Shown one piece after another: positions 5,197 through 61,384 of a DNA stretch of 64,000 nucleotides. Source of the DNA: Perna viridis. Taxonomy: Eukaryota. Location: assembly GCA_037379345.1 (NCBI GenBank), contig CM074523.1, positions 29,790,995 to 29,854,994 on the forward strand, written 5' to 3'. The position numbers and the translations under genes were made by a program. Below the pieces are notes generated by a model. That model searched no databases and was not told where the DNA came from. It worked only from the letters and a program-made list of their open reading frames with translations. The first letter of the stretch is position 1, and every line of letters begins with the position of its first letter.

Positions 5197-6395
5197 ATTT
5201 TTAAATTGAAACTATAAGTTTATTTTATCAAAAATTGTAAAATAAAATGCATTTCATTAAATCCCATGCGAATCTGCATCCAATGGTTACTCACATGACA
5301 TGGTAGGTTGAAGAAAAAGCGGCGCAAGATTTGCAATTCAGTGTTTTGCAAATTTAAATTGTCTTGTGTTGGGTGCCAGTCCAATTTTCAACTTCTATAT
5401 GTAGAGAATTCAGAACTAAACATCAGTTGTTAAATAAAAAAAATAACATACCTATTAAACTTTTTTGTATGTTCAAAAAGGGGAGATTGTCAGCTTTCTA
5501 AGACTGAGATTTAGCGTAACGACCTTTTTCGAAAATAAAAAGGATAATTTTGCTAGAAATCCAAGTACAATATACAAAGATGAGACAAAAATATAAAATC
5601 TATGATAATCTCATTAATCCATTAAGGGTTTTTAATAATTGTTTGACTAATTAGTACTAAAAAAGGACCAAATATTTGTTGATTGCTTCTCAATGTTTAT
5701 TTTGTTACATTAACATTGTATTTATGTCAATTTAATAAGCCATTTAAAACATAATTTGTGCACTATATCTGCTAAGAGGGAGATGTTTGGGGGGAGAATG
5801 TTGGGAAAGAGGAAGATCTGTGTCCCCCATATGGGAGACTTTCTCAGAGGAAGATTGACCCTCCTGAAGAGGGAAGGTTAAACAAGTATGAAATAATGCA
5901 AATTAATTCTGAACATTCCATCATAACCTTAATTAAAGGATTTTGTAATGTCTATTTGTCACTGTTAGACCCAACTTTTCTTGCTTTTCTCAAGCCATTA
6001 ATAAGGCCTAATCCTAGATTAGATCATTCTTCAACATGACAGTATGTAGCTGACTGACACAATATCACTTGTACATTTGTACATTTTTATATCTACAAAA
6101 ATCTGTTTCAGATTCAATAGGGTCAGACCTGCTGTATCCGCCCCCTTTTTTATAAGAAAACTACATTTAAAACAATATTTTTGGCACATTATATTGATTT
6201 TTCACAATTTCTATTGACCTGAATTATGTGGCCCCCTTACATAAAACTCTGGATCCGCCACTGGCTTTTGGTATATTCTTAGCTTGACATGTGTTCTTAA
6301 TTGAAATTGGTTTTCGTTTTTATTTAAATTGAATTGAATATTACTTTTCCCTGGTCACTCCAATCACAAAAATATACAAAAATATGGACATATAG

Positions 6396-7924: not shown

Positions 7925-9470
7925 TTCATAGATTCATAGACAAGATTTTATTGATAGCCTCAGACACAGTAGATGTACAAGAGGACAAAAAAACCCAAAC
8001 AAACAAACAAACAAAAAATAAATACAAACATGTACATACATGGAAATAAGACAAATACACAGACACAATACACAGAACAGGCAATATCATAAAATATGTG
8101 AATACAAACAGATTCACATTTATATTTTAACACATTCACTTTCATATGATATTAGCAATTTTTCGTAAAAAAGCACACACTCTTTTGTATAACTGAACAT
8201 TACAGATAGTCAACAACCCACCAAATTTACTCATATTCGGTTGCTTCGAGTAGTAATCTGGGATGTAACGAGATCTTAAATACTTAACCGTTGGATTATT
8301 GCACTGGAAGAATATGTGAAATTCATCTCCCACACCTTCTTTACAAAGATTTCATATTCTTTGACTCCGTGGGACTCCAGACCACCTCCCAGTTTCTATT
8401 GAGAGTTTTAAGTTGGAACATCTTTAGTTTGTCAAATGAATACGTTCTTTTGGGACAATCTGAGAAGATATGGTTCAATTCTGAATTCACGTTTAAAGGT
8501 GGAGTAGAATTCACCACGAGATGTGTTGTCCATTTGTGAAAACCAAGACTGATAGAACTGATCACATAATGTCTGTTTAACTGCGACCTTAAGCCAGTTA
8601 ATATTTACTTGAACGTGTTCGTTCCATAAGTAACTTAAGACCCGTATCATCAAAGATAGATTTAATATAGTTAACCCACCTAAATTAGGTTGGATTATTG
8701 TCATGCAATTTTAACATAAGCCGAAGCATCAGATTTGACAGTTTTTGTTCTTTTTACATAGTTCTTGCCCAAAAGCTAACCATTCTTACTTTAACAAATA
8801 TTTCAAGTGGAATTCTACCCAACTCTCCATAAACCATAAAATTTGGAGTGCTGCTTCTCAGCTTAAGGATATTTTTACAAAATTTAAGATGCACCTTTTC
8901 AATGTTTTGCTTATTTTCAAAACCCCAGACCTCAGAGGAATATAACAGTATTGGTGATATCAAAGTATCAAATAACTTCAACTGTAAATCTATTGGCTGT
9001 GGAATGTTTCTTAGTTTCCTATAGAGACCAAATAGAGCTTTTTGGTCTTGATCTATTAGACGCTTTCTTGCAATAGTGAAACTGCCGTTGTAATTGAAAA
9101 CCGTGCCTAGATATGTATACGACTCTATTTCTATATTTTTGTTATATATTTGAAATTGAAAATGTTGTTTACACTTTCTTTTGGTGAAGACAACAACTTT
9201 TGTCTTTTCAGTATTAACATGTAATTTCCATTTTTTAAAGTAATTAGCAAACACATCCAAATTGAATGCTTTTCGCATAGCTTCCTTTGTTTCTGACATT
9301 ATAATTGTATCATCTGCATAAAGCATCACAAATAATTTGACATATACATCAAACATTTCTGAGCATGAACTTTCTATCAAATCTAGATTTTGTACTTCAT
9401 TGTCTTGCAAAAAGATTTCTAGATTATTAAAAAAAATTGAGAACAGAAAAGGCGACAAGTTTTCTCTTTA
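7925..9470 (-). mobile_element. 5'-truncated non-LTR retrotransposon (RT C-terminal half plus 3' UTR; RTE-X/CR1-group-like), frameshifted
   Basis: ORF 8754-9458 has SPFLFSIF, LYADD, YTYLG, PILLYSSEVWG and YGELGR. Downstream fragments carry GDEFHIFFQC. The 3' end is AATAAA followed by (TCTATGAA)x2. Confidence 0.85.
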
Positions 9471-17350: not shown

Positions 17351-17709
17351 GTTATTTATATATAATTCATCAACACGTCCCCGTTTTTATCGCCATTTTC
17401 TTGTCCGAATAAGTTCTTGTCAAGATTTTCGCTTTATTATTTGATACTTCCCAAAAAACCTTTCATATCGATTAAAACACTTTTATCCTTCTTTATAGTT
17501 TTTTTTTTAATTTTTGAATTAAATTTAGTAAAGCTAAAGTTATAGCCTGTCCTGTTTTAGACCAACCCGCTACGCTTTTTGTTAGGCATTTTATTAATAT
17601 ACAAGTAATGAAAGTTCTTAGATGATGATATGTATATTTTGCATTAGTTAGTTTTCATTAGTCGACTGAGCGTTAATCATTTTTTTTATTATTTCTTTTC
17701 TAGCCGTCC

Positions 17710-18327
17710 ATGGACGTCAAATCGGGTCAATGGAAAGGATATTACGTACAATACAAAAAACGTCAAATGTTTTCTACGAACTTGCAGTTCGAAAAAGACA
17801 GCGTAACTGGAACCGGAGATGACGAAATCGGTAAATTCTTGATCGAGGGGAATCTTAACAGAAAAAAATGCATTATTGAGTTCATGAAAGTATATGAAGG
17901 TGCTCATTCCGTGAAATACTCGGGTGAAGTTTCTCCGGACGGACTCACTATTAAAGGCAAATACACAATTAAAGGTGGAGAAGACATTTTTTCTATGTCA
18001 TTTCATAAATGTTCATATATAGATGTTAAATCTGGACACTGGATCGGATATTATATGCAATATAGGGACCGTCACATTTTTTCTATGAACTTAAAATTCG
18101 AAACAGACACAATAACCGGAAGTGGCGATGATGAAATTGGGTCATTCTCAGTCGAAGGAACGTTTGACAGAATGACTGGCAATGCAGATTTTATTAAAGT
18201 TTACCATGGTGCCCATTCAGTAAGGTACTCTGGTGAGATTACCCAGGATGGGTGTACAATGAAAGGACAGTACACAGTTAGTGGCAGTAAGGACGATTTT
18301 ACTATGTCTATCAATTCATGGTGGTAA
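17710..18327 (+). CDS. Uncharacterised 205-aa protein with two tandem ~100-aa glycine-rich all-beta (probable beta-barrel) domains
   Basis: Intact ORF with a clear internal duplication (DVKSGxWxGYYxQY...GxGDDEIGxFxxEG...FxKVYxGAHSVxYSGE...GxTxKGxYT). Polypyrimidine/AG acceptor ends at 17703, ATG context is good (TCCATGG), and AATAAA overlaps the stop. Confidence 0.85.
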   Translation: MDVKSGQWKGYYVQYKKRQMFSTNLQFEKDSVTGTGDDEIGKFLIEGNLNRKKCIIEFMKVYEGAHSVKYSGEVSPDGLTIKGKYTIKGGEDIFSMSFHKCSYIDVKSGHWIGYYMQYRDRHIFSMNLKFETDTITGSGDDEIGSFSVEGTFDRMTGNADFIKVYHGAHSVRYSGEITQDGCTMKGQYTVSGSKDDFTMSINSWW

Positions 18328-45708: not shown

Positions 45709-47316
45709 ATAGGGTTAAACAATGTACAATGTTTTATTTTACTGTTGGAAGAGACTAATGGAGTGATGAATTACTTTGTAAAAGAAGATGAGACGTATTC
45801 TTGTTCGTCGTAATTGTTAAGCTAGCTAATTTAGTTGTTCCAGCATGTCAATTACGGAGCTAGTGTTGTGGTATTTGTTGCAGCTATAGCATGCTGCTCT
45901 ACGTTGTTACCATACTATTTCAAACTGTTGTGTTTGTGATTTGTTGTTGCTGCCGTATTCTAGTTTTGGCCTATGAGTCAACTTTTAGGTTACGTTTGAA
46001 AGTTTAGTTGTGTTGAGGCTGCTGGTGTTATGTAGTCTATGTGTTTGTTCCATTTGATGTTGTCCAAGATATTGTGTAGCGATTACTTCTTGTAGTACAT
46101 GTTGTGTACATGTAGTTATGCTGTATTGGATTTTTCTTCGTTGTTGCATGGAGAACTGATCACTTGTCAGGATGGAAGGACATGAGCCAGTCCTCCTCCC
46201 ATTCAACTGCAGCTGATAGATCTTCTTGGAGCTGTTCAGCATCTGTGTATTTTTGATAGTTTTAGATATGATGCTGTCATCTGCAAAAAGCCGTTAGATA
46301 ATATGTTTGATGTAGTCATTAAAGTCATTGATGCATACAAGGAACAGTATAGGACCCACTACTTTCCATGTAATACACCGGATGTGGCATGAATTGTTTC
46401 TGAAGTCTCATCTTCAACAAAGACTGTCTGTGTTCTTAGTGAAAGGAAATCGTCAATCCACTTTAAGATGTAATAATCTATGCCATAGTGACTGAGGTTA
46501 TAAAGGAGTCTTTTGTACGGGACCTTGTCAAAGCCTTTGGCAAAGTCCACCACAATTACATCCGTCTGAATGTTGCTATTGTTATTTTGAGCAAATACTT
46601 GAATAAATGAAACTAACTGGGTTTTGCAGGATCTTGAATGGTGAAATTCATGCAAAAGGCCGTGTAAGATGTTGTTACACTCAAGCTGTTCCATTACGCT
46701 ACTTGCAATGATATGCCCCTTGATTTTGCAGAGAATGCATTCGAGTGATATTGGTCTATAGTTTATTACGTTGTGTTTTTCTCCTCTTTTGAAGACTGGG
46801 CGAACATTTGCAAGTTACTACAATCTATTGGTATTCTACCGGTGTCAGTGTTTTTTTTTGTTTTTTTTTGTTTTTTTTTTTTGCATGTAATGATGCATAT
46901 TGCCACACAGTTCTTTTAGTCCCTGTCCACATATCAGATCCGATCAGTGGCTTTGTGTGGATTTATTTGTTGTAGGGTTTAATTGCACCTTATTTTGTGA
47001 TGTTGATTTTTCCATTAGTGGATGAGTTGATTTGCCTTTATATGGTAGTGGTTTATCAGTAGTTTCAGTTGGGAATGCTTTTTCGAATTGGCAGTTGAAG
47101 ATGTTTGCTTTTTCAAATAAATTTTCTTTTTTTTAACAACAAATAATATTCTTTATTATCAATAAAGCTTGTTACAGTTTACGTCAGAAGTCCAAGCACC
47201 TTCTGACGCTCCCTGTTCATAATCACTAGTTACCCAGGGTAGTAAAAAGTGTCAAAATAAAATATTTCAAACATAAATTTACTAATACATAAATACATTC
47301 AACTTAACATACAATA

Positions 47317-50300
47317 TCACTTCTGATAGTTGTTTGATACATAATTTTTGATGAATATTAATTTTGAATTACTATTAACTGAGTTAATTGTAGTCTTCAA
47401 TTCTTTAACAAAGATATCAAAAGTATTAACATGTTTGGTTCTATGTTCAGATACATAGTATGCTTTATAAATAGAAAAACCTATTATAGTTAATAAGAGA
47501 TTTAACCAAAAATATGTTTCTTCAAATATTTTATATCCCAAAACAAGATGTTTTAAAGTTATCTCAAAATTCATATTACATACACGAAGAATTTCTTGTA
47601 TTTTTGTCCAAAAATTATCTAAGCACGAACAGGATATAAAGTAGTGAAGATAATCTTCGTCTTCATTACAGAAATTGCACTGAATATTTTGAGTTATTTT
47701 CCACTTACATAATAGTTTTCTGTTAGGAATTATGAATTGTAGAAGTTTCCATCGAAACATCTTCAATTTGTTTTCTTGTAAATAACCAAAAATAAAATTA
47801 TAAATGTTTGGCATAAAAAACACGTCTTTTATATCAAAAATTCTTAACCAATTGCTTACTCTCCAATAGAGGATTCAAATTTTTAACTATAAATGATTCA
47901 TACAATATCTTGTTCGAAATATTTTTTTACATTTATATCTATATTTTTCCAACAAATTTGAAATCTTTTTAAAATGAACCACACTCTTTACAGAATTTTC
48001 TGATGATAAAGATTGTTTCCATTCGAAAGGTATGGCTTTTTTCAAAGTTTGAATTTCTGCTATCCAGTTCGATTTGTTTTTCAATTTACTTAAAATGATT
48101 TCTTGAGATATGCATCCATTTGCATCTATTATGTCATTTATATAAATTATATTACTTTTAATCCAATTATAAAAAAAAAATACAGGTTTATTGTCAAATT
48201 TAATATATTTATTATTCCATAATATTTGTTTTCTTATTTCTGTGAATGTAGTAGGTTTTTCTTGATTGCCCCCACCTGATACATTCCAACTTTTTAATAC
48301 TTCTTCGTAAAAACCAGGTATATCTTTAAAATATTTATGTTTTATACTATTATCATTATTCGTCATAAAAATTAACCAATTTGTACCAATACCATTAAAA
48401 TATTTATGAGGAATAACCTTCCAATTTACAATTTCTCCGATAGCTAATCTTTGCACCCACGCGGCTTTCAATGAACAAAAATAAGTCCTTATGTCTACCA
48501 TTCGCAATCCCCCTACTTCATATCTACCAATAATTGTATTTCGTTTTACTTTATCTGGTTTATTATCCCATATAAATTTAAAACATCTACTTTCTATTTC
48601 TTTAATGTACACTTCTGGTACGATACAAGTGGACCCTATGTATGTAAAAATTGGCAAGACAAGTCTTTTTGTTATTAAAATTTTTCCTAAAATTGTTAGG
48701 TTTCTCTTTTTTTCATGTATCAAAAAGTCTATTCATCTTATTTATTTTCCCAATTTAATTTTTCACATTCTTCCCTACAATAGCCAAAATATACCCCCAG
48801 AGCTTTTACTGGATTTATAGTCCAACTAATTCCTGCAACTTTATCTTTACAAGATTTTAACTTCCCTACCCATATTCCCTCCGTCTTGTTTCGATTTAAT
48901 TTTAACCCAGAAAAAGACACAAAAATTTCAATTTCGTTCATAGCAAATTCTACTTCTTGCTTTGAGCTACATAACAGAGTAGTATCGTCTGCTAACTGAG
49001 AAATTTTTATACTATGATTTCTTTGGTCTAATTTGATATTGATACCTTTGATGTCATTATTACTTCGTATTCGTGATGCCATTGTTTCTACAGATAATAC
49101 AAATAAAAGAGCAGATAAAGGACATCCTTGGCGTATTCCCATTGTGTTTTTTTAAATATTTCAGAAATCCATCCATTATTAGTGACACAAGTTTGAATAC
49201 CATTATACAACGTTTTAACCCACGATATAAATGAATCATTAAAACCAATATGTTTAAGAACAGTTAACATAAAGTTCCATTCTAGGGAATCAAACGCTTT
49301 TGAAAAATCAACAAATACAAGTGCCCCTTCTATTTTATATAACTCTGTGTAGTCGATAATATCTTGTATTTGCCGCAGGTTGAAACCAATAAAACGATTT
49401 TTAACATAACCAGTCTGATCTTCATTAATGATATCAGTTAAAATTTGTTTTAACCTATGAGCCAGAATATATGACAGAAGTTTCAAATCCACGTTTAAGA
49501 GCGAAATTGGGCAATAATTATCCAAAGACAAAGGATCTCCCTTTTTAAATAAAAGTGTTAATACACTTGTACGTTGTGAATATGTGAGGTTTTGGTTTCT
49601 ATAGCCAGTATTTAAAACCGAAACTATAATATTTTTCAATTTCCCCCAAAATTTTCTGTAAAATTCGACAGTTAGTCCGTCTAAACCAGGTGACCTATTA
49701 AGCTTCATTTTAAAAATAGCGTTAGTACATTCGTCTAATGTTATTTCTCCGTCACAATTAGATTTGTCAAATTGCCTATTTTAGGATCAAGATTAGTATT
49801 AAATATGTTACTGGTCACTAAGTATTTTGTCTGGATAAGAAGATGAATATAAATTTTCATAATAATTTTTAATATTTGTTAGCAACTCCCCCTGATCTGT
49901 TAGAATGTTTCCATCCCCGGACGTTAATTTGTTAATTGATTTCTTAACTTGTCTCTGTTTTTCTAAACCAAAAAAATACGAATTATTTTTTTCACCAAGT
50001 TCAATCCATTTTTCCCTAGATCTGATTTGTGCCCCTTTTGCCTTTTCATCGTAAATTTTACCAATTCCAATTTCAAGATTATTAATTTCCTTATCTGTAA
50101 TATCTGAATCTACGTCTTGTTCATCCCTTACCTTCAACTTATGTTCCAATTTTTTCTCAAGAAGTTTCATATTTTCCCTAGTTGTTTTTGTTTTATTTCT
50201 GCAATATTCAACAGTTATCTCCCTTACCTCAATTTTGAAAACATCCCATGCCAATTGTATGTCATTAGTATTTTGTTTATCTTTAAAACACTTATCAATT

Positions 50301-51120
50301 AATAGATTAATCGTATTTACATAAACATCATCATTTAAAACCGATTTATTTATCTTCCAATAACCCCTCCCTTTTTCTGAGATACCGGTCTTAAACTTTA
50401 AAAATATGCTCTGATGATCTGTATAATTAATGACAGCTGGCTTAATTTTACAACATTCTACATACGGGATAAAATCTTTTCCGATCAATATCATATCTAT
50501 GCGACTCGCTTGAGACTTATCCTTTCTCTGTCAAGTAAATTGTTGTTTATTTTCATTTAAAAGTCTCCAGATATCAGTTAACTTATTTTCTTTTATTAAA
50601 ACTTTAAGACTGTTAACTGGTTGGTTATTTTGTGTCCCTACTCTAGTACTTTTCCTATCAATACTTTTGAAATTATCGTTAAAATCACCCCCCAATATAG
50701 GAATTCCAATCCCATGTTCTTAAGCATACTATTTACTTTTTTAAAAAATGCATTTCTACTAGTTTTACAATTAGGCGCATATAAACATAATAAAGAGAAT
50801 ATACAATTATCTATTTCAATATTAATCAAAATGATCCTACCTTCCTCATCTGAAAATGTATCAATAATTTTATGATTTAATGATTTTTTAATTACTATTG
50901 CAACACCACACCTGTTTGTTGTTGCATTATTGCAATAAACTTAAAATTCGTCGTATTTCAACATTTCTTTTTCAATATTAATATCAAAATGTGTTTCCTG
51001 TAAAAAGCAAATCGAATACTTATGTGATTTAATCCATTCAAAAACTCTATTCCGTTTATTTCTACATTTCAAACCGTTTACATTTAAAGTATTTAGATTT
51101 AATACATTTTCAGATCCCAT
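47317..51120 (-). pseudogene. Tx1 ORF2 (APE endonuclease, RT, C-terminal zinc finger), multiple frameshifts
   Basis: MGSENVLNLNTLNVNG...FLQETH, YAPN, TDH, GYWKIN, SPGLDGL, PISLLNVDLK, DFSKAFDS, GIRQGCPLS, QLADD and CNFC...HYFISC. Confidence 0.92.
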
Positions 51121-52096
51121 TGTAAATAGTGATAATAATATTTATATTAAATACATATATATCAATATAACATTTATTAACATTTACACAAACAAAAAAC
51201 TTTACACAAACGATGACACAGATATAGTTACAAAACACACTTAAAACGGGTACAAACATTGGGTAAAGTGTACGTGACCTGATAGCACCTATTGACCTTG
51301 TCTGTGTCAAAGCTTTATAATGATAGACACAAAACATGTGGTCAAGAGCGTGTGCTATTTTACCTGGATATTCACTTTTTTCATCTAAAATAACATTAAC
51401 ATCCGTAAAAAGTGGAAAAATTATTGTTCTGAAGTGACAATGGGTATTAGCCTGAGAAATATAAAAGATGTAAGTTGTGACAATTGCGTATTTTGTGAAA
51501 GATAGCTGTAAGATGAAAACTTTGGAACAAAATGTGATGAATTCGGATTGAACAAGTGTTTCCTTACTCAAAACGAGATAAAAATTATCAATGTGTTCTT
51601 TGAAACGCACCGAGACAGCAAACCCTACAAAGACGTGGAGCTCGAGACACAAACGGATAAAATACTGTGAGTATTTCTCAATTATATAAGTTTCTTCAGT
51701 ATAAGCTAGCAAATATTTTTTGCAGACATCGTGTAACATATGCAAGTACACGTATAAGATGTTATGGAAACACCGATTGAGACAAATATTGTAACCACTT
51801 CTAGATCGGATGAAATATGAAGTGATAAGTAAATTTTCAAAATTTGGTCTTAAATCAGAATTTAAATGGACAGTGTCGTACATACATACTATAAAACGGT
51901 ATAAACAAAAACCCAAATATAGTTTGTCTAGTGCTAAAAATAGAATAGGTAAAATCCAATTTAAAACGTAAACAAACTTCAGCTGTTTTAATAAACGTTT
52001 GTAAACATAAATAGGATATGTGATCTTGACATATTTTATTCTTTCGTTTTTGTTTGTAAACGAATTATTTAACAGGCTATTGTTGGTAAAACTCAT
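51110..52096 (-). CDS. Intact 328-aa hydrophobic ORF of unknown function between Tx1 ORF1 and ORF2
   Basis: 987 bp with no stop codon in very AT-rich DNA, several hydrophobic stretches, and a 3' end overlapping the ORF2 ATG in another frame. Confidence 0.5.
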   Translation of the reverse strand: MSFTNNSLLNNSFTNKNERIKYVKITYPIYVYKRLLKQLKFVYVLNWILPILFLALDKLYLGFCLYRFIVCMYDTVHLNSDLRPNFENLLITSYFIRSRSGYNICLNRCFHNILYVYLHMLHDVCKKYLLAYTEETYIIEKYSQYFIRLCLELHVFVGFAVSVRFKEHIDNFYLVLSKETLVQSEFITFCSKVFILQLSFTKYAIVTTYIFYISQANTHCHFRTIIFPLFTDVNVILDEKSEYPGKIAHALDHMFCVYHYKALTQTRSIGAIRSRTLYPMFVPVLSVFCNYICVIVCVKFFVCVNVNKCYIDIYVFNINIIITIYNGI

Positions 52097-52574
52097 TTCA
52101 CAGTTTTTGTAAATTAAATCAGCTACATAGTTAGAAATAATTAACTCTATTTTGGCAACTCAGTTATTACCACTTTCTATTAAATATTTTGATTTTACAT
52201 TAGAACCTTGTATTGTTTTACATTTTTTCATAGTTTGTAACAACGTAATAAAGTAAGTGCCTGTACGGTACAATTTAATTATAGTGTTACACAACATTAA
52301 AGATATATTGCATACAAAAGAAACACTAAAACAAGTTTTGATTTTCTTTATATTAGAATCCTTCACACAAATATTAATATCATCTCTATGTGAAATATAC
52401 ATCACAATTAAATTCAATACAACAAACTTTAAGAAAAGAATCATTATCTTTTCACAAAAACACAATTCAATGTTTACTCTTTTGAAGAGCTTGTTTTTAC
52501 ATACCATTTTTATCTTTTTTTAAAGTTTTTTTTGGGGGGTTTAATTAAAATTACACTATTACATAATAATTAAC

Positions 52575-53641
52575 CTTTATTTGCTTTTTTACCTTTGTCC
52601 CTCTCCTCAGGTGTTGGAGGAGTGTGTTGATTTTTGTTTCTACCCTTACCATGTTGATTTCTACTTTCTGGAGTGTTTACAGAAGCGTCAATTATACCGT
52701 GAGATTTAACAAAAGAAACAGACTTTTCATTTTTTTGGAAGTGTTTTGATTTCTCCCAGTTCTTGGCTTTTCTTGTTGATGGGGTGTCTTGTCAGATTGC
52801 CCAAAGGCCTGTCCATTTGACTGTTGACCCCCTTTTTCTTTCTGCTGTTGTTTCATTGTCTGTTGTTGTTTTATTGTCTGTTTTTGTTGTTCACATTGTT
52901 CTTGTTGTATCTCAGGCTCATCAGCTTTTGTACTATCATTATCATTTTCACTTAATTCAACATCATCATCATCATCATCTTTACCTTCATTGTCACTAAA
53001 CATTTCTGGTGTTAATGCTTCTGGACAATCCATTTGTCTGTGCCCTGATTCATTACACCTTTTACATTTCCAATCATTTGGACATTCTAGAATCATATGC
53101 CCAGTTTCAAAGCATTGTCTGTAGGCTGGCCACTGTGTAAGACTATAGCACTGTATCTCCCCATTTTCATGAATTTAGGTAGAGGTTCTATAAAGGTTTT
53201 ACACAATAGGATCCTGTCTCCATTTTCACAGTTAGTGAGTCTCCCATCAACTCTGATATGTGCTCTTGTTATGAAATCCACTTTTACTCCTTTAAGTTCT
53301 ATTGTTCTTTTAATAATGCCATCATCAGCACTAAGAGGGACCCCTTTCACAATAACTTTCATTATGGCCAGGTTTGCAGTCAAAGGGTTGTTTGGATTGT
53401 GTGTGTGAATGTTTATTTGCTTGCCCCTCAGCGCAATGCCCTTTGTTAACAACGACAAACGACCTTCCTGGTTGTCCATATATATACGCCACATACGACG
53501 AATACGTTGGATACCTTTGATTGTACATGTGTCTACTACTTCGCTGATAGCCTTGTATATTTCAACATGTGTGACAAATGATTGTTTTTTGGGAATTACA
53601 GAACCAAATATATCACTGTCTTTTACGAAAATTAGTTTCAC
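52575..53641 (-). pseudogene. Tx1 ORF1 (RRM-like region, CCHC zinc knuckles, acidic/Gln-rich tail), 5'-truncated and frameshifted
   Basis: GIQRIRRMWRIY, KVIVKGVPLS, GRLTNCENGDR and CKRCNESGHRQMDC. Confidence 0.85.
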
Positions 53642-55459
53642 AGAATTAGATCACTGAATTTTCAGTGAGTGTGCCATTATTTCATAGTGCTGCTATGCCG
53701 TTGTTGTCGTTTTTCATACCTTTGAAGTAAGTAAAGAGATTTTTTGGATGTTTTTCTGTTTTCATCAGGCTCGCATGCTAGCAAGTCAAATATAAAGTTT
53801 TGGATGTAGCACCAGTAGGCTTTTCTTATATCTTGTGATGATTATTTTATTATGTTTATACTCCTTTGTATATTCTGCACTCTTGTTTTTTTTTCATAAA
53901 GAAGTTTTGATTGGTTAATTTTTTTGTCTGAGTTTGTTGTCAATCCAAGTAGTTTCTTTCTGCTTGTTTTGTGGGATGCTGTCATCAATAGGCTGAGAGA
54001 CAAACTGAAAAACGAGGTGAGCTTCGTAATCGATAGATTTTAAATGACTGACTCTTATTACCAAGTTTTCGATAACGTTTCATAATTCATCAACATTGTA
54101 GAATGCTATTTATTTTGGGAATAAATATTGGCACTTAAACTGTCCTTACCATAAGTAGATCCCCTTAATCTACATATTTCATTGGCTTTGAACAAGTTTT
54201 CAGTTAAGTTCAATATCTCAGAAACTACCCGTAGTTAAGGGTTGATATTTGTTCACTGGATATATCTTGGATAGTCACCAACACATATGTCATGATTACG
54301 AAAATTAGGTCACCCTGAAGTTTTTATGATAGCATGATTGAATTTCCATACCTTAGCAACCACAGTGGTGGAAGTACATGTATGCTTGGTCAGTCAGAAA
54401 GTGGATATAACTTGCTGGATAATAACTAACATCCGCACCAGGATAAAGTCGCCTTGACGTGTATTTTCTGCATAATTGATTTTAAGTTTTTGGTCATTGT
54501 CATCTCAGCAACAAGTTGCAGACAGGTTGACATTTCCAATTAGTCAGTGGGTACATCTTACATATAGGTAGTAACCTAACAAGAAAAAAGTTATCTTGAA
54601 ATATATCTTCCGCAGAATTGATTTGATCAAGTTTTTGTTAATGGCTATATCTATGTTCGTGTTGGATGGGTGCTTAACATTCTGCATATACCACTTGGTT
54701 AACGAGCCTTAAAACATCATCCCTGATCCACTGACCAAATACCATCCAATCTCATATAGCTGTTGAGATATTTCAAGTCAAGTTGAACATGTTACTTAAA
54801 CAACTCATTTGTGTGGCTTTTTATATTTTTTTTGTTTTTTGTTTTTTGAAGAACGACCAAGAACTTCTTTTACCTTTGTGCTTTTAGCTAGAGATCTCTA
54901 AGCATACCCCTAGATGGAATGTGTGACGGGTGGGGAGGAAGAGAGTAACCTTGATGTTTTCCAGAACTTGGAATATGTATTTCATGAGTGGTCACACGTA
55001 CTTTTCAATCGGTATTCCTCCATTTTCTATTGTTTTGATATTTAGGAAACAATACCACACCATGGGAGCCTGAGCAATGAGAAGTGTGTGTAGCTATCAT
55101 ATTACGACGGGGAATTATCACAGGGAAGATGTTTGTAAAAATATATTAGCTACGCACGTTCATGGACAAGGACTTCTTTTTGACCGCTACTACCTATACA
55201 TCTACATCGTTTTTGCGTCCAAAATAACTGTTGTATTTTATTGCGCTATTTTGAATTTTTTTTGGTTGAAACTTTTATATTAAATTGATAATTTATAATT
55301 GCATTCTAACATTGTCGAGGATATTACAGAAATGAAAATTTGCATTTTTCATACTCGTTTGCAAATGTTTTTTACCTGAATATCTACTTACCGTTCAATC
55401 ATAGATACAACATACACTCACATTTTCCATTGTTCAAATTCCCAAGGAGTGAATATGGA

Positions 55460-55814: not shown

Positions 55815-57643
55815 TATTTTCTCTCGCTTCAAAAAATGCCTCCTTTATATAATCAATGTAATACATGAGAATTGTAATTTCGTAAGGCGATATATAAATC
55901 AACATTGGAATAAGGATCATCGTTTCTGATCCATCCTATCTCCTCTAATATATTGTTACAAAAATCATATATGTCAACGTCGCATACACGATTATTGTTA
56001 AAAGAACATTCATTCAAACATACGTCGACTTCGTCTTCATTTACTTTATGGATATAATCTTCAGCATCAAGCAACGCTGGCATTCTGTGTAATAGGTATG
56101 ACCTCCCTGAAGATGCGGCTGTTGATGAGTTGTGCCTTATTTTGTGCTGATTCCAATCTGATACAAAGATACAAAAGCTTTTATATCTTTCTAGAAAAAA
56201 TAAGCAAATATTATCAATAATCAGATTACTAATTTCCTAATCCGCTGGGGTAGCTATAAAATGCGAAACGAAATCGAAACGAATCGAAGCGAAATCTATA
56301 AATTGCGAAACGAAACTGTGAAATGCGAAACGAAGGGAAGAAAAAAATCATTATTTTGTCACGTAAGAGTTGAAACGTGTTTCGTATAATTTATCGCTAA
56401 CGCTCATGGTAAAATTTTAGGTATAAATTGACTACCCATAGTATAATCCCCAGAAATTTACCCTTCTATGAATAGACCCTTTTTTGCTGACAATGAGTTA
56501 GTCGATGAGCATGCGTAGAGCATGCTCAATATACATTTCTGCCAGGAAAATTCTTTTGTTCTACCCAAGCCCTACCTCATGGAAGTGTATATTGAGCATT
56601 CTCATCAACTTACCACAAAATTGTCTATTAAGTGTTAAATAAACTATGAAGGAGACGTTATATTGTGCCTGGGAGGTAGACAAATCATTTACAATCACGA
56701 CCAGCATGTACCCCCATAAAACATTATAGAAAATGAATCTAGGATCATTTAGAAATGGGATTTCTCTTGCACTCGCGAAAACTTTTAGAACTTGTAACAA
56801 CTAAGATTTATACATACCTGAATAAGCTCCATAAAATAAAATTGAATTAAGTTGACGTCACGTCCAAGATTGATCCGTTGAAAAGATTATAATGTTTCAG
56901 CAGTTTGAACAGATTTATCCAAAACTCTGCACACTGTTTGCGGAACATTGCCCACAGTGATTCAATTCTCTGATTGTGTGTACTTGAGCCGTAAATATAG
57001 CACTCAACCGAATGGATACTATTTCGGTGGAAGAATCGCTGCATATGTTCAACAAACTTATTTTCTGTTCCAAAGTCACTTCTGACCGATTTCGGGCATT
57101 TCAGTCCTACGACAGCTTCGATATAGTATCCTGCTATAACTTTTGGGTCATTGTTCGTTATTCCAGCCTTCATCCATATAAGTTTTCTAGAAAACTATCT
57201 ATACATCCGTGAATGGTTATGCCGAAAGGTTTGAGTTTATCGTACCCGTCTATATGCCAAATGCTGTTGGGTCCACAAGATATGTACTCTCTGCATTTAA
57301 ACTTGCGTCTTTTCCGAAATTCAACACCTTGCCTATCCAAAGCTTTCACAATAACACGAACGTTCTCCATGCTAATCACTAAGTTGTTCTTTATACACTG
57401 TTGATGAACAAAGCGATATCCATGTGATCCATTTGTTTTTGTCAGAAACGATTGAATAAATTCATAGCATCTTTCTATACTTGATTCTTTGCGTTTATAA
57501 AGCCCAATAGAATTTGCAATTCGACGTAAATGCCGTGTACTAATACAAATATCATGTTGATCCTGAAGTAAAAGCTTCATTTCTGAGTAAGAATATCCGT
57601 GTCGGAAATAGGAATACAGAGATGGAAGCCACCATTTTTCCAT
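55815..57643 (-). pseudogene. IS3EU-type (IS3/IS481-related integrase-core) DDE transposase pseudogene, two coding exons
   Basis: GPNSIWHIDGYDKLKPFGITIHGCID, RSDFGTEN, GSSTHNQRIE. Intron 56817-56191 (CAG|GTATGT ... TTTTCTAG). Exon 2 contains WNQHKIR. Frameshifts near 57190 and 56165. Confidence 0.8.
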
Positions 57644-59068: not shown

Positions 59069-61384
59069 GAGGTGTCATCCCAGTTGTCCCACATTTTATA
59101 ATTACAGGTAAAAATCTGTGGGACAAGTGGGAATTGTGTACGTGTTAATTAGTTGTTTTCACACCCTTATTACAATAGGTAATTATGTATAGTCTTTTTC
59201 TGAATATTATCTAATTGTATTATGTAGTATCTATAGATAAATTGTTCCTGAAGTATATTTATTGCTATAAAATATGTAACTTATTATAAAATAAAATAGA
59301 TCTTTTCCAATCCTTTGTACTGATGCCTGGTAACAGAGGGAGATATTCCATGTGGATAGTTTGAATGCATTTTGAACTGTGCTTTTTGATGATGCTTTTT
59401 CCATATTAATATTTTTCTCCTTGGGTGATAATTGAAACAACAATAATATTTTCTAATATTTATTAATTGCTTTATGATATTTATGAAAATAACAAGATTC
59501 ACAAAAATTAACAGAGAATGATAATAATGCACTATTACAGTGTAAAACAAACAGTAAAATGTTCATACACTTCTACCCAAGGTGAATAAGCTGAGATGCT
59601 GCATCAGCATAATTGATAACTGTGATTTCCCCGTTGCGTAGTCTTTGTTTGAGTAGTTGCAGTCTGTTGTTAATATTTCTGTATTTGCGGCGCTTTCTTG
59701 TTGGTAGTCCCCCTGCTCTAATTTGGATGATATTTACTTCATTGGCTGACTGGATCTGCTTGAGATGAGTAATGAATGTGTAGATGTTCGGATGTGCCTG
59801 CTGTATTTGTTTCTTAATCTTGGAATGCCATCCCTCTAAGTGGTTGGTTGTTCTGGATTCATCATGGTCAAAGTGGTTCTAGATTTGCTGATCAGACTCT
59901 ACCCACTGCGTTGTTACATAGTCTGTAAATGGTATTGTGTTGATGTTAATATCGGCATTTTCCAAGTCAGTCAAAGCATTAAACCACACATCATCTACAC
60001 TCTGCAGAGGAACTAAGGGTAGCACTGCTGCTCTGCGTACCAGTGTCTTGATGACTTCATTTTCTTTGTACTGTGTTTGTAGTCCTGATTGCTGTGTCTT
60101 CCTCCAAATACACTGCGTGAAATGAAAAAAACACCCTCGAATTGCAATGTTAGGAAAGACAGTCTTTGCTGCATTGATTGTTGCAGTCTCGAAGTCAAGA
60201 ACAAAAGTTGAAGGCTGAAGTTGAAGTTGCTGGTTTGTGCAGTTGGTATGTACAATACTAAAAAAAACCTTCTGTAAACGTCTTCACTCTTGCCAGGGAG
60301 TAGACCATAAACAAGAGGATACATCTGACCATTTACTTTGCCATGAATTGTGTAGAGTTGAGTAAATACAGAAAGGCAGGTGAAGAATGTACCATCTCCA
60401 AAGATGGTGTCGTTATTGGCTAGTAGTTGAAGATTCTGTTGCGTTGGGAAGACCAATATGCGTTGTCCATTGTTGTCATCTGCAAGAAGGAACTGTTCAC
60501 CAGCTGATGTTTGGGTCCATTGACCTTGTAAATCAATGTCGTTGGTTGATGTTGGCAACTTTGGTAGTAGACGGGAACGTTGTCTATAAAGTATGCTTCT
60601 AGAAGACTGGAATGTTGGTAGTTGTTCAACCATATTTTGTACTTCTTCATTCCATTCAGGTGTTCTCAATTTTGCTACCTCTTCATCATAGAGTTTTGGT
60701 ACAGCTGTTGCTTCTTCTCTACATCTTTTTTTTTGATTGTGTTTAACATCTTTGCTGCCTCTAACTTATATGGCTCTGCTCTGTGGTTGTGTTGAATGTT
60801 GTAACCTACTGGTATGTTGTTTAAGGTTCTTATAGTAGCTGGGCATGTTCTGACAGCACACCGCCAGTAAACCCTTTCTTCACGACGATTCTTTACCTGG
60901 AAACGGTAATTGTTGTGAACAAGACTTTGTCCACCTCTACTGTTCTCTATGAATTCTATGTTTAGCTGTGCATTAGCCATTTTGACTTTGATTCAAGTTG
61001 ACATTTTTACTTTCTATATATACCTCTTTTGAGATGTGTTCACATTGATTTCAACAAGCTGAAGTGGCATGTTGCTCATAAGCAAGCCCACTTAGAAAGA
61101 AATTGATAAGCCAATTAATGTGGTCAGTTATTAAAAGTTATTATATGACTGCTGGTTTAATTAGTTAAAATAATTAACTTCACTTATTATTTTTATTATT
61201 ATTTTTTTTTTTTAATTCCAATCAAAAATATGTATCTACATGTATATGACTAGATGGTGATAGTAGAGTACTAGAAAAAGACTATAACTTTGTCAAAACA
61301 CTAATTAATTATTTGTTGTTATAAGAATCTGGACAACTGGGAATATTGTTTTTTTCAAATGTGGGGCAAATGGGAATCAACCTC
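59069..61384 (-). mobile_element. Mutator-like (MULE) DNA transposon with degenerate TIRs
   Basis: Left GAGGTGTCATCCCAGTTGTCCCACATTT; right, reverse-complemented, GAGGTTGATTCCCATTTGCCCCACATTT. Contains a FLYWCH-MULE transposase. Confidence 0.8.
59560..60980 (-). pseudogene. FLYWCH plus MULE DDE transposase, frameshifted
   Basis: LVHNNYRF...YWRC...CPA...HNH (FLYWCH), GDGTF...QLYTIH, DFE, GCFFHFTQC and RTTNHLEGWH. Shifts fall in or near homopolymer runs. Confidence 0.9.

Follow-up and report, generated by a model that had tools for sequence, protein, structure and literature searches.

A T-rich open frame between ORF1 and ORF2 of an L1/Tx1-type LINE family in Perna viridis, probably a translated spacer with a largely unconstrained peptide

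The gap between ORF1 and ORF2 in an active Tx1-like LINE family of Perna viridis (family A) holds a conserved open frame of 465 codons, here called MID, whose predicted peptide looks like random T-rich stop-free sequence. On balance, and judging from sequence comparison, MID is probably a translated spacer that would relay ribosomes to ORF2 by termination-reinitiation, its peptide being largely unconstrained. A T-rich middle ORF likewise fills all or most of the gap in six other families of this genome and in one intact metagenome element, and it usually ends at the start of ORF2 (ATGA, TAATG or short overlaps), sometimes by way of a stop-restart chain. Elements of the L1/Tx1 type normally encode ORF1 and ORF2 only; the majority sequence of family A, a young LINE with a full length of 6.87 kb, instead holds three ORFs, laid out as ORF1 (398 aa), 63 nt, MID (465 aa), an 11-nt overlap, ORF2 (1264 aa) and poly(A). 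We call the family Tx1-like from the type of its ORF1.

The window that we analysed is a stretch of 64,000 nt (assembly GCA_037379345.1, contig CM074523.1, forward-strand positions 29,790,995 to 29,854,994), in which a family A copy lies on the minus strand at 47119-53649, 97.8% identical to the family majority over 6587 nt. This copy is 5'-truncated and decayed: it lacks about the first 293 nt of the element, and its 5' end is at 53649. A DNA search of the same genome returned 17 matches, of which 15 (the window included) span most of the region at 95-100%; besides the window copy there are 16 matches at 95-98%, and locus L022 was left out of the copy counts as a duplicate of L019. The earlier note on this DNA had described the element as bounded by target-site duplications (TSDs), and these are indeed present on the minus strand at 53651-53663 (5' copy) and 47113-47126 (3' copy), albeit in degenerate form (GAAAATTCAGT-GA vs GAAAATTTATTTGA, 11 of 14 columns matching) and around a copy that has lost its 5' end. 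Clean TSD-like matches of 9-17 nt occur in six of the 11 longer sister copies, and the sister 3' ends, all but one, converge on an AATAAA with a short poly(A) tail (47127-47157, minus strand). The poly(A) tail, variable TSDs and 5' truncation seen in the family are features of the L1 superfamily. Family A is dispersed, and its locus L018 has no Rfam target. The insertion interrupts an older decayed LINE (46359-47112 and 53664-54200, with an RVT_1 match at 46362-46814) which reads on across it, and which we take to be CR1-like. Elsewhere in the window lie split ORFs with an integrase core domain (rva_4; 56847-57643, minus strand), a MULE transposase fragment (59879-60283, minus strand), a further RT fragment (8754-9467, minus strand) and a beta/gamma-crystallin-like frame slightly below the cut-off (17704-18327, plus strand).

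The coding parts of the window copy are all on the minus strand. ORF1 survives as a frameshifted remnant (52570-53649); when intact it has 398-399 aa, with zinc knuckles (zf-CCHC in two stretches, E 7.8e-6) and an acidic/Gln-rich tail, and it has 32 homologues, the named ones being from Mytilus and Pinctada, whilst no relatives were found among viral contigs. An A-rich spacer of 62-63 nt (52508-52569) leads from the ORF1 stop to the MID ATG. ORF2 (47323-51120), broken in this copy, carries an APE endonuclease (Exo_endo_phos, Pfam E 1.4e-11), then a reverse transcriptase (RVT_1, E 6e-34) and zf-RVT. Between them, MID occupies 51110-52507. Two separate ORFs had been reported here, an ATG-initiated one of 328 codons (51110-52096) and one of 115 codons (52160-52507); both exist, but they are really a single 465-codon MID, open in the family majority and split by a premature TGA at codon 116 (52160-52162) that is private to the window copy. 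No other family A copy has this TGA, and no nonsense change is common to copies. The frame ends, as had been stated, in TAC AAT GGG ATC TGA and overlaps the ORF2 ATG (51120), and this 11-nt overlap (ATGGGATCTGA, 51110-51120) is the putative reinitiation junction.

The aligned copies bear out that the third ORF is a feature of the family, and not an insertion in a single copy, and that MID is separate from ORF2. MID is intact in five of the 14 family A copies covering it, ORF1 in three of 11 and ORF2 in none of 15; private stops and frameshifts have similar rates in all three, as expected after insertion. The claim that such openness exceeds chance held up well: an open run of 328 codons has a P of about 3e-12 and one of 465 codons a P of about 5e-17, and the longest open frame has 469 codons, whereas 500 dinucleotide shuffles averaged 69 and never exceeded 152.

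RNA reads lie mostly in the orientation that a stranded library would give for sense RNA. Their peaks are truncated copies within host transcripts, with one loose end at 1155 and another, which matches the L030 flank, at 6268, and for this reason the reads do not establish element-driven expression; no holder is on record as RNA. The 3' end of family A at L018:700-1155 is highly expressed within another transcript, with 648 reads that have one loose end. One RNA-type contig spans MID and ORF2. We considered MID as an intron and rejected the idea, there being no splice joint in MID in four runs nor in four further contig runs, at a thin raw read coverage of 0-2x. Folding in 120-nt windows gave no run of low z-scores around the MID-ORF2 junction.

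Searches with the endonuclease and ORF1 brought out two older relatives of family A, families B and C, which share with it 36-58% identity in ORF1 and 44-57% in the endonuclease. Their majority sequences have ORF1-ORF2 gaps of 1.7-1.8 kb, most of which is taken up by long open frames of hydrophobic character. Some breaks in these frames, lying in A-runs, are uncertain, and an insertion obscures the 5' part of C; BLAST shows no similarity between the middle frames and MID. In the family C majority, TAATG closes the last frame at the ORF2 start, exactly so in three of the six copies shown, whilst in B the TGA of the last frame is followed by 4 nt and then the ORF2 ATG, with an internal stop-TTC-ATG in five of the six copies shown. 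A 320-nt palindromic, high-copy (MITE-like) insertion sits within family C spacers (L124, query 224-543).

We examined 20 more distant loci, those not classed here being truncated, decayed or further copies. Two of them (L205, L206) are intact elements with a middle ORF, and four (L199, L203, L204, L207) have gaps of at most 51 nt, three of the four adjoining tRNA genes. In another clade, no ORF fills the 728-1171-nt gaps of L209-L213, which contain just an open frame of 55-90 codons that ends near ORF2, and ORF2 is intact in none of the five. Many intact two-ORF LINE copies lie in tRNA gene arrays on several contigs (L203, L204 and L207, and also L199); L209-L213, along with L215, L216 and L218, are L1-type, with a coiled-coil-like ORF1, long gaps and a hydrophobic 55-90-codon frame ending at the ORF2 ATG. 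Following up L205, for which 14 of 30 loci were read, yielded families D1, D2, E, F, G and H, with T-rich middle ORFs of 144-240 aa. The junction with ORF2 is ATGA in D1/D2 and a 26-nt overlap in F, and G has ATGA with ORF1 and ATGAGTGA with ORF2. The middle ORF of E stops 30-40 nt before the likely start of ORF2, with no ATG there, and H adds a 20-codon ORF, its chain ending about 60 nt short of the ORF2 start. The ORF2 frames of E and H (L206:1096-4599; L240) have no ATG at the expected start, and the same 1168-codon frame length is seen at four loci, which suggests a near-cognate start; L1 ORF2 can start without AUG, and this would fit both families. At L232/L248 the middle ORF of family F is preceded by two different ORF1-like frames in tandem, of 245 and 377 codons.

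These families also keep particular company: D lies beside U2, E beside U1, F beside U5 and G beside U4 genes or fragments, and they are apparently target-specific. Intact LINEs flanked by U2, U1, U5 and U4 stand at L205, L206, L232 and L237 (the G000 C12, C2 and C5 arrays), with U1 next to SRP RNA genes. The accessible part of the account of Tx1-clade targets in PMC4494074 does not name U1 or U4. Middle ORFs of different families do not align with each other, and among 28 pairs there is weak residual similarity between E and F and between A and the metagenome element L269 (P<0.005 and 0.01). In an RT tree of this genome's families only, in which four of the 29 rows have no RT, the A/B/C group and D/E form separate, well-supported clades with the two-ORF families on the D/E side; the layout therefore either arose more than once or was lost repeatedly.

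A metagenome scan with the ORF1 alignment gave 25 loci, of which 14 were read, and three of these hold both ORF1 and the ORF2 start. One, L258, is fully intact, with an endonuclease 57% identical to that of family A and an ORF2 that matches human L1 ORF2p at E 6e-92 and R2 at 4e-19. Its layout runs from ORF1 through 76 nt to a 313-aa hydrophobic ORF, then by ATGA to a 41-aa ORF ending 32 nt past the ORF2 ATG, and the composition of its middle ORF departs from the composition null described below (p=0.017). The decayed L269 has a four-link chain (as few links in 0 of 500 shuffles) and the more distant L262 a two-link chain (2 of 500). The middle ORFs of L258, L269 and L262 do not align with MID.

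Does MID encode a membrane protein? The earlier note had read such a character into it, from about four hydrophobic segments. Four Kyte-Doolittle segments of at least 1.6 are present, but this is the number that composition alone gives: our null, stop-free codons of the same base composition, has 3.5-3.7 (P about 0.5). GRAVY is likewise 0.39 against 0.37-0.38 in the null, and the amino-acid composition fits it (chi2 24.7, p=0.17). Codon positions show GC1=GC3=0.30 and marginal periodicity (p=0.06), whereas ORF1 and the RT portion of ORF2 lie far from the null (chi2 68 and 92), with GC3 below GC1. GRAVY and TM count fit the null in all seven middle ORFs tested from the genome and composition in six, that is, in 6/6 and 5/6 of the families D1-H. 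U-rich codons generally encode hydrophobic residues, according to the accessible text of bioRxiv 10.1101/2022.07.20.500724. The membrane-protein reading is thus not supported, hydropathy, segment count and composition all being explained by T-richness. A HMMER search of 1.84 billion representatives with the 465-aa query found one homologue, P0002 (95-98%), as did a word-seeded search with the 328-aa piece; MID matched no Pfam family and no PDB entry and, within its own genome, nothing but family A copies. AlphaFold gave a pLDDT of 34 for the family A MID, a single-sequence prediction that is uninformative, and of 42 for the family D middle ORF with five rows.

Selection on the peptide appears slight in family A. 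For variants found in at least two copies, dN/dS is 0.85 in MID (12N/5S), 0.68 in ORF1 and 0.37 in ORF2, the contrast between MID and ORF2 within this family alone being not significant (p=0.34). Variants pooled over A, B and C number 47S/141N in the middle frames and 77S/134N in ORF1 and ORF2 together (Fisher p=0.017), with B and C counts that come from old copies and include homoplasy; our own arithmetic puts the pooled middle-frame dN/dS of the three families at about 1.06. Shared changes thus stand near 1, against the accessory protein that had been supposed, and the radical ones common to family A copies include T88K, R236I and I241N. Between D1 and D2 the middle ORF has a dN/dS of 0.75-1.0 and ORF1 of 0.14-0.19. 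Here the replacements alter hydropathy less than those of a neutral no-stop simulation (P 0.002-0.006), second-position changes have a P of about 0.012, and the sole internal indel is in frame; this conservation of hydropathy is our main reason to suspect some constraint at the protein level. The D1/D2 pair is evidently recombinant. At L219 and L222 the last 39 middle-ORF codons are identical, the ORF2 starts near-identical and the ORF1s 67% identical, and ORF1 would seem to have been swapped by recombination inside one snRNA array.

What these elements have in common is that the way from the ORF1 stop to the start of ORF2 stays open, while the length, sequence and integrity of the peptide vary, and it is from this that we infer a relay. 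Ribosomes would terminate at the ORF1 stop, start again at the MID ATG 62-63 nt downstream and translate their way across the U-rich spacer, until termination over the ORF2 ATG let them initiate once more at that ATG. Under such a scheme, stops and frameshifts leaving ribosomes stranded at a distance from ORF2 would be selected against, and amino-acid changes would not; each restart would lower the ORF2p:ORF1p ratio, and the MID peptide would be a by-product under little constraint. Stop and restart codons overlap or stand close in A, B, C, D1/D2, F, G and L258. After an ORF as long as 465 codons, reinitiation is normally efficient only with a cis signal. No such signal was found, nor any folding enrichment at the junction, which counts against the relay, as do the D1/D2 hydropathy conservation, the gaps of L209-L213 and the junctions of E and H. 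The relay also leaves the persistence of the spacer unexplained (perhaps an RNA element, or dosage control), as deletion would be simpler.

A useful product would more easily explain the keeping of 1.4 kb. MID could be a real, fast-evolving hydrophobic accessory protein (a membrane tether, an agent of cell-to-cell transfer or a host-defence antagonist) born from a T-rich spacer and translationally coupled to ORF2, which we consider rather unlikely. Long frames are kept in at least two separate clades, the start context is strong, D1/D2 conserve hydropathy (P about 0.005) along with an in-frame sole internal indel, and the faint similarities of E to F and of A to L269 also speak for it; yet GRAVY and TM count fit the null in 7/7 cases and composition in 6/7, dN/dS is about 1 with radical shared changes, lengths range over 144-465 aa with split versions, and one 95-98% sequence is the only homologue, with no Pfam or PDB match. 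It is improbable that the open frame instead protects the RNA, ribosome coverage shielding a long U-rich stretch from nonsense-mediated decay, with ORF2 started from an IRES or a subgenomic transcript. Such protection would account no less well for an open frame whose peptide is neutral, IRESs have been predicted in long vertebrate L1 intergenic regions (PMC5381506, in its accessible portion), and L209-L213 do have long gaps with no full ORF. However, a protective frame need not place its stop on the ORF2 ATG, where ATGA, TAATG and short overlaps recur, and MID shows no splice joints in four runs whilst the RNA-type contig covers it together with ORF2.

The earlier note had also raised the idea that programmed frameshifting joins MID to ORF2p as an N-terminal extension, for which we found no support and which is very improbable. 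In its favour are the 11-nt overlap and an ORF2 frame that is open for 7 codons upstream of its ATG, but a +1 shift within about 10 codons would be needed, and no slippery heptamer is seen there; the frame relation and spacing vary by family, including a 4-nt gap in B, and ORF2 opens with an ATG of its own, in a strong context, from which a standard endonuclease start follows. Near-neutral evolution would, finally, befit a recently captured piece of a host gene, or an antisense shadow of coding sequence, open by descent and devoid of function. This origin is hardly credible and already largely refuted: there is no other source in the genome or databases, the layout recurs with unrelated sequences, MID has no codon-position bias, and all three antisense frames hold 23-45 stops. 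First-position changes in D1/D2 had prompted the antisense-gene version, which was rejected on the stops in every antisense frame.

Could the translated spacer be part of something wider? It is possible, although we hold it with more doubt than conviction, that L1/Tx1-type LINEs of bivalve-like hosts are widely tricistronic, that the long U-rich spacer of two or more lineages has turned into an ORF, or a chain of them, selected only for translatability (a ribosome conveyor setting ORF2 dosage), and that in some lineages the hydrophobic product is being co-opted as a de novo membrane protein. If this were true, the conveyor would take the place of the IRES as an account of long L1 spacers, and the families would offer a natural series for de novo gene birth. 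The elements make relay, IRES and protein models separable, and hence the question of ORF2 translation testable. A long ORF kept open with little sign of protein selection bears on ORF annotation, and the case of MID bears on dN/dS as a test of function and on de novo gene birth from U-rich sequence.

Full-text searches of the open literature turned up no L1/Tx1 element described as having a third, sense-strand ORF between its ORF1 and ORF2, although Repbase descriptions may already note such ORFs. One parallel is the vertebrate L1 spacer: long ones are treated as non-coding, with an IRES predicted and no ORF mentioned in the accessible text of Boissinot and Sookdeo (2016, PMC5381506), where ORF2 translation across them is stated to be open, whereas the family A spacer, at 1.45 kb, is both longer and free of stops. 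For SART1, termination-reinitiation is reported, and for LINE-1 it has been proposed (PMC5972666, accessible text); both share with our families overlapping or closely spaced stop-start junctions; the human L1 spacer of 63 nt even equals the ORF1-MID gap in length. SART1 and mammalian LINE-1 are two-ORF elements, however, whilst here at least two successive restarts would take place across a long ORF with no cis signal found. Extra ORFs occur in other retroelements too. Primate L1 ORF0 is short, antisense and upstream of ORF1 (PMC5203782, in part), and env-carrying LTR elements have Env genes with conserved fusogen folds and cysteine patterns (PMC13524379, in part), unlike MID, which has no detectable fold or conserved residues. 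The Tx1-clade non-LTR retrotransposons (Tx1, Keno, Kibi and Koshi), as far as the accessible part of PMC4494074 describes them, have the same APE, RT and zinc-finger ORF2, zinc-knuckle ORF1, poly(A) and TSDs; Keno sits in U2, and other families described here lie in U2, U1, U4 and U5 snRNA and tRNA gene arrays. The difference is that family A is dispersed, and that a third sense ORF here fills the gap between ORF1 and ORF2.
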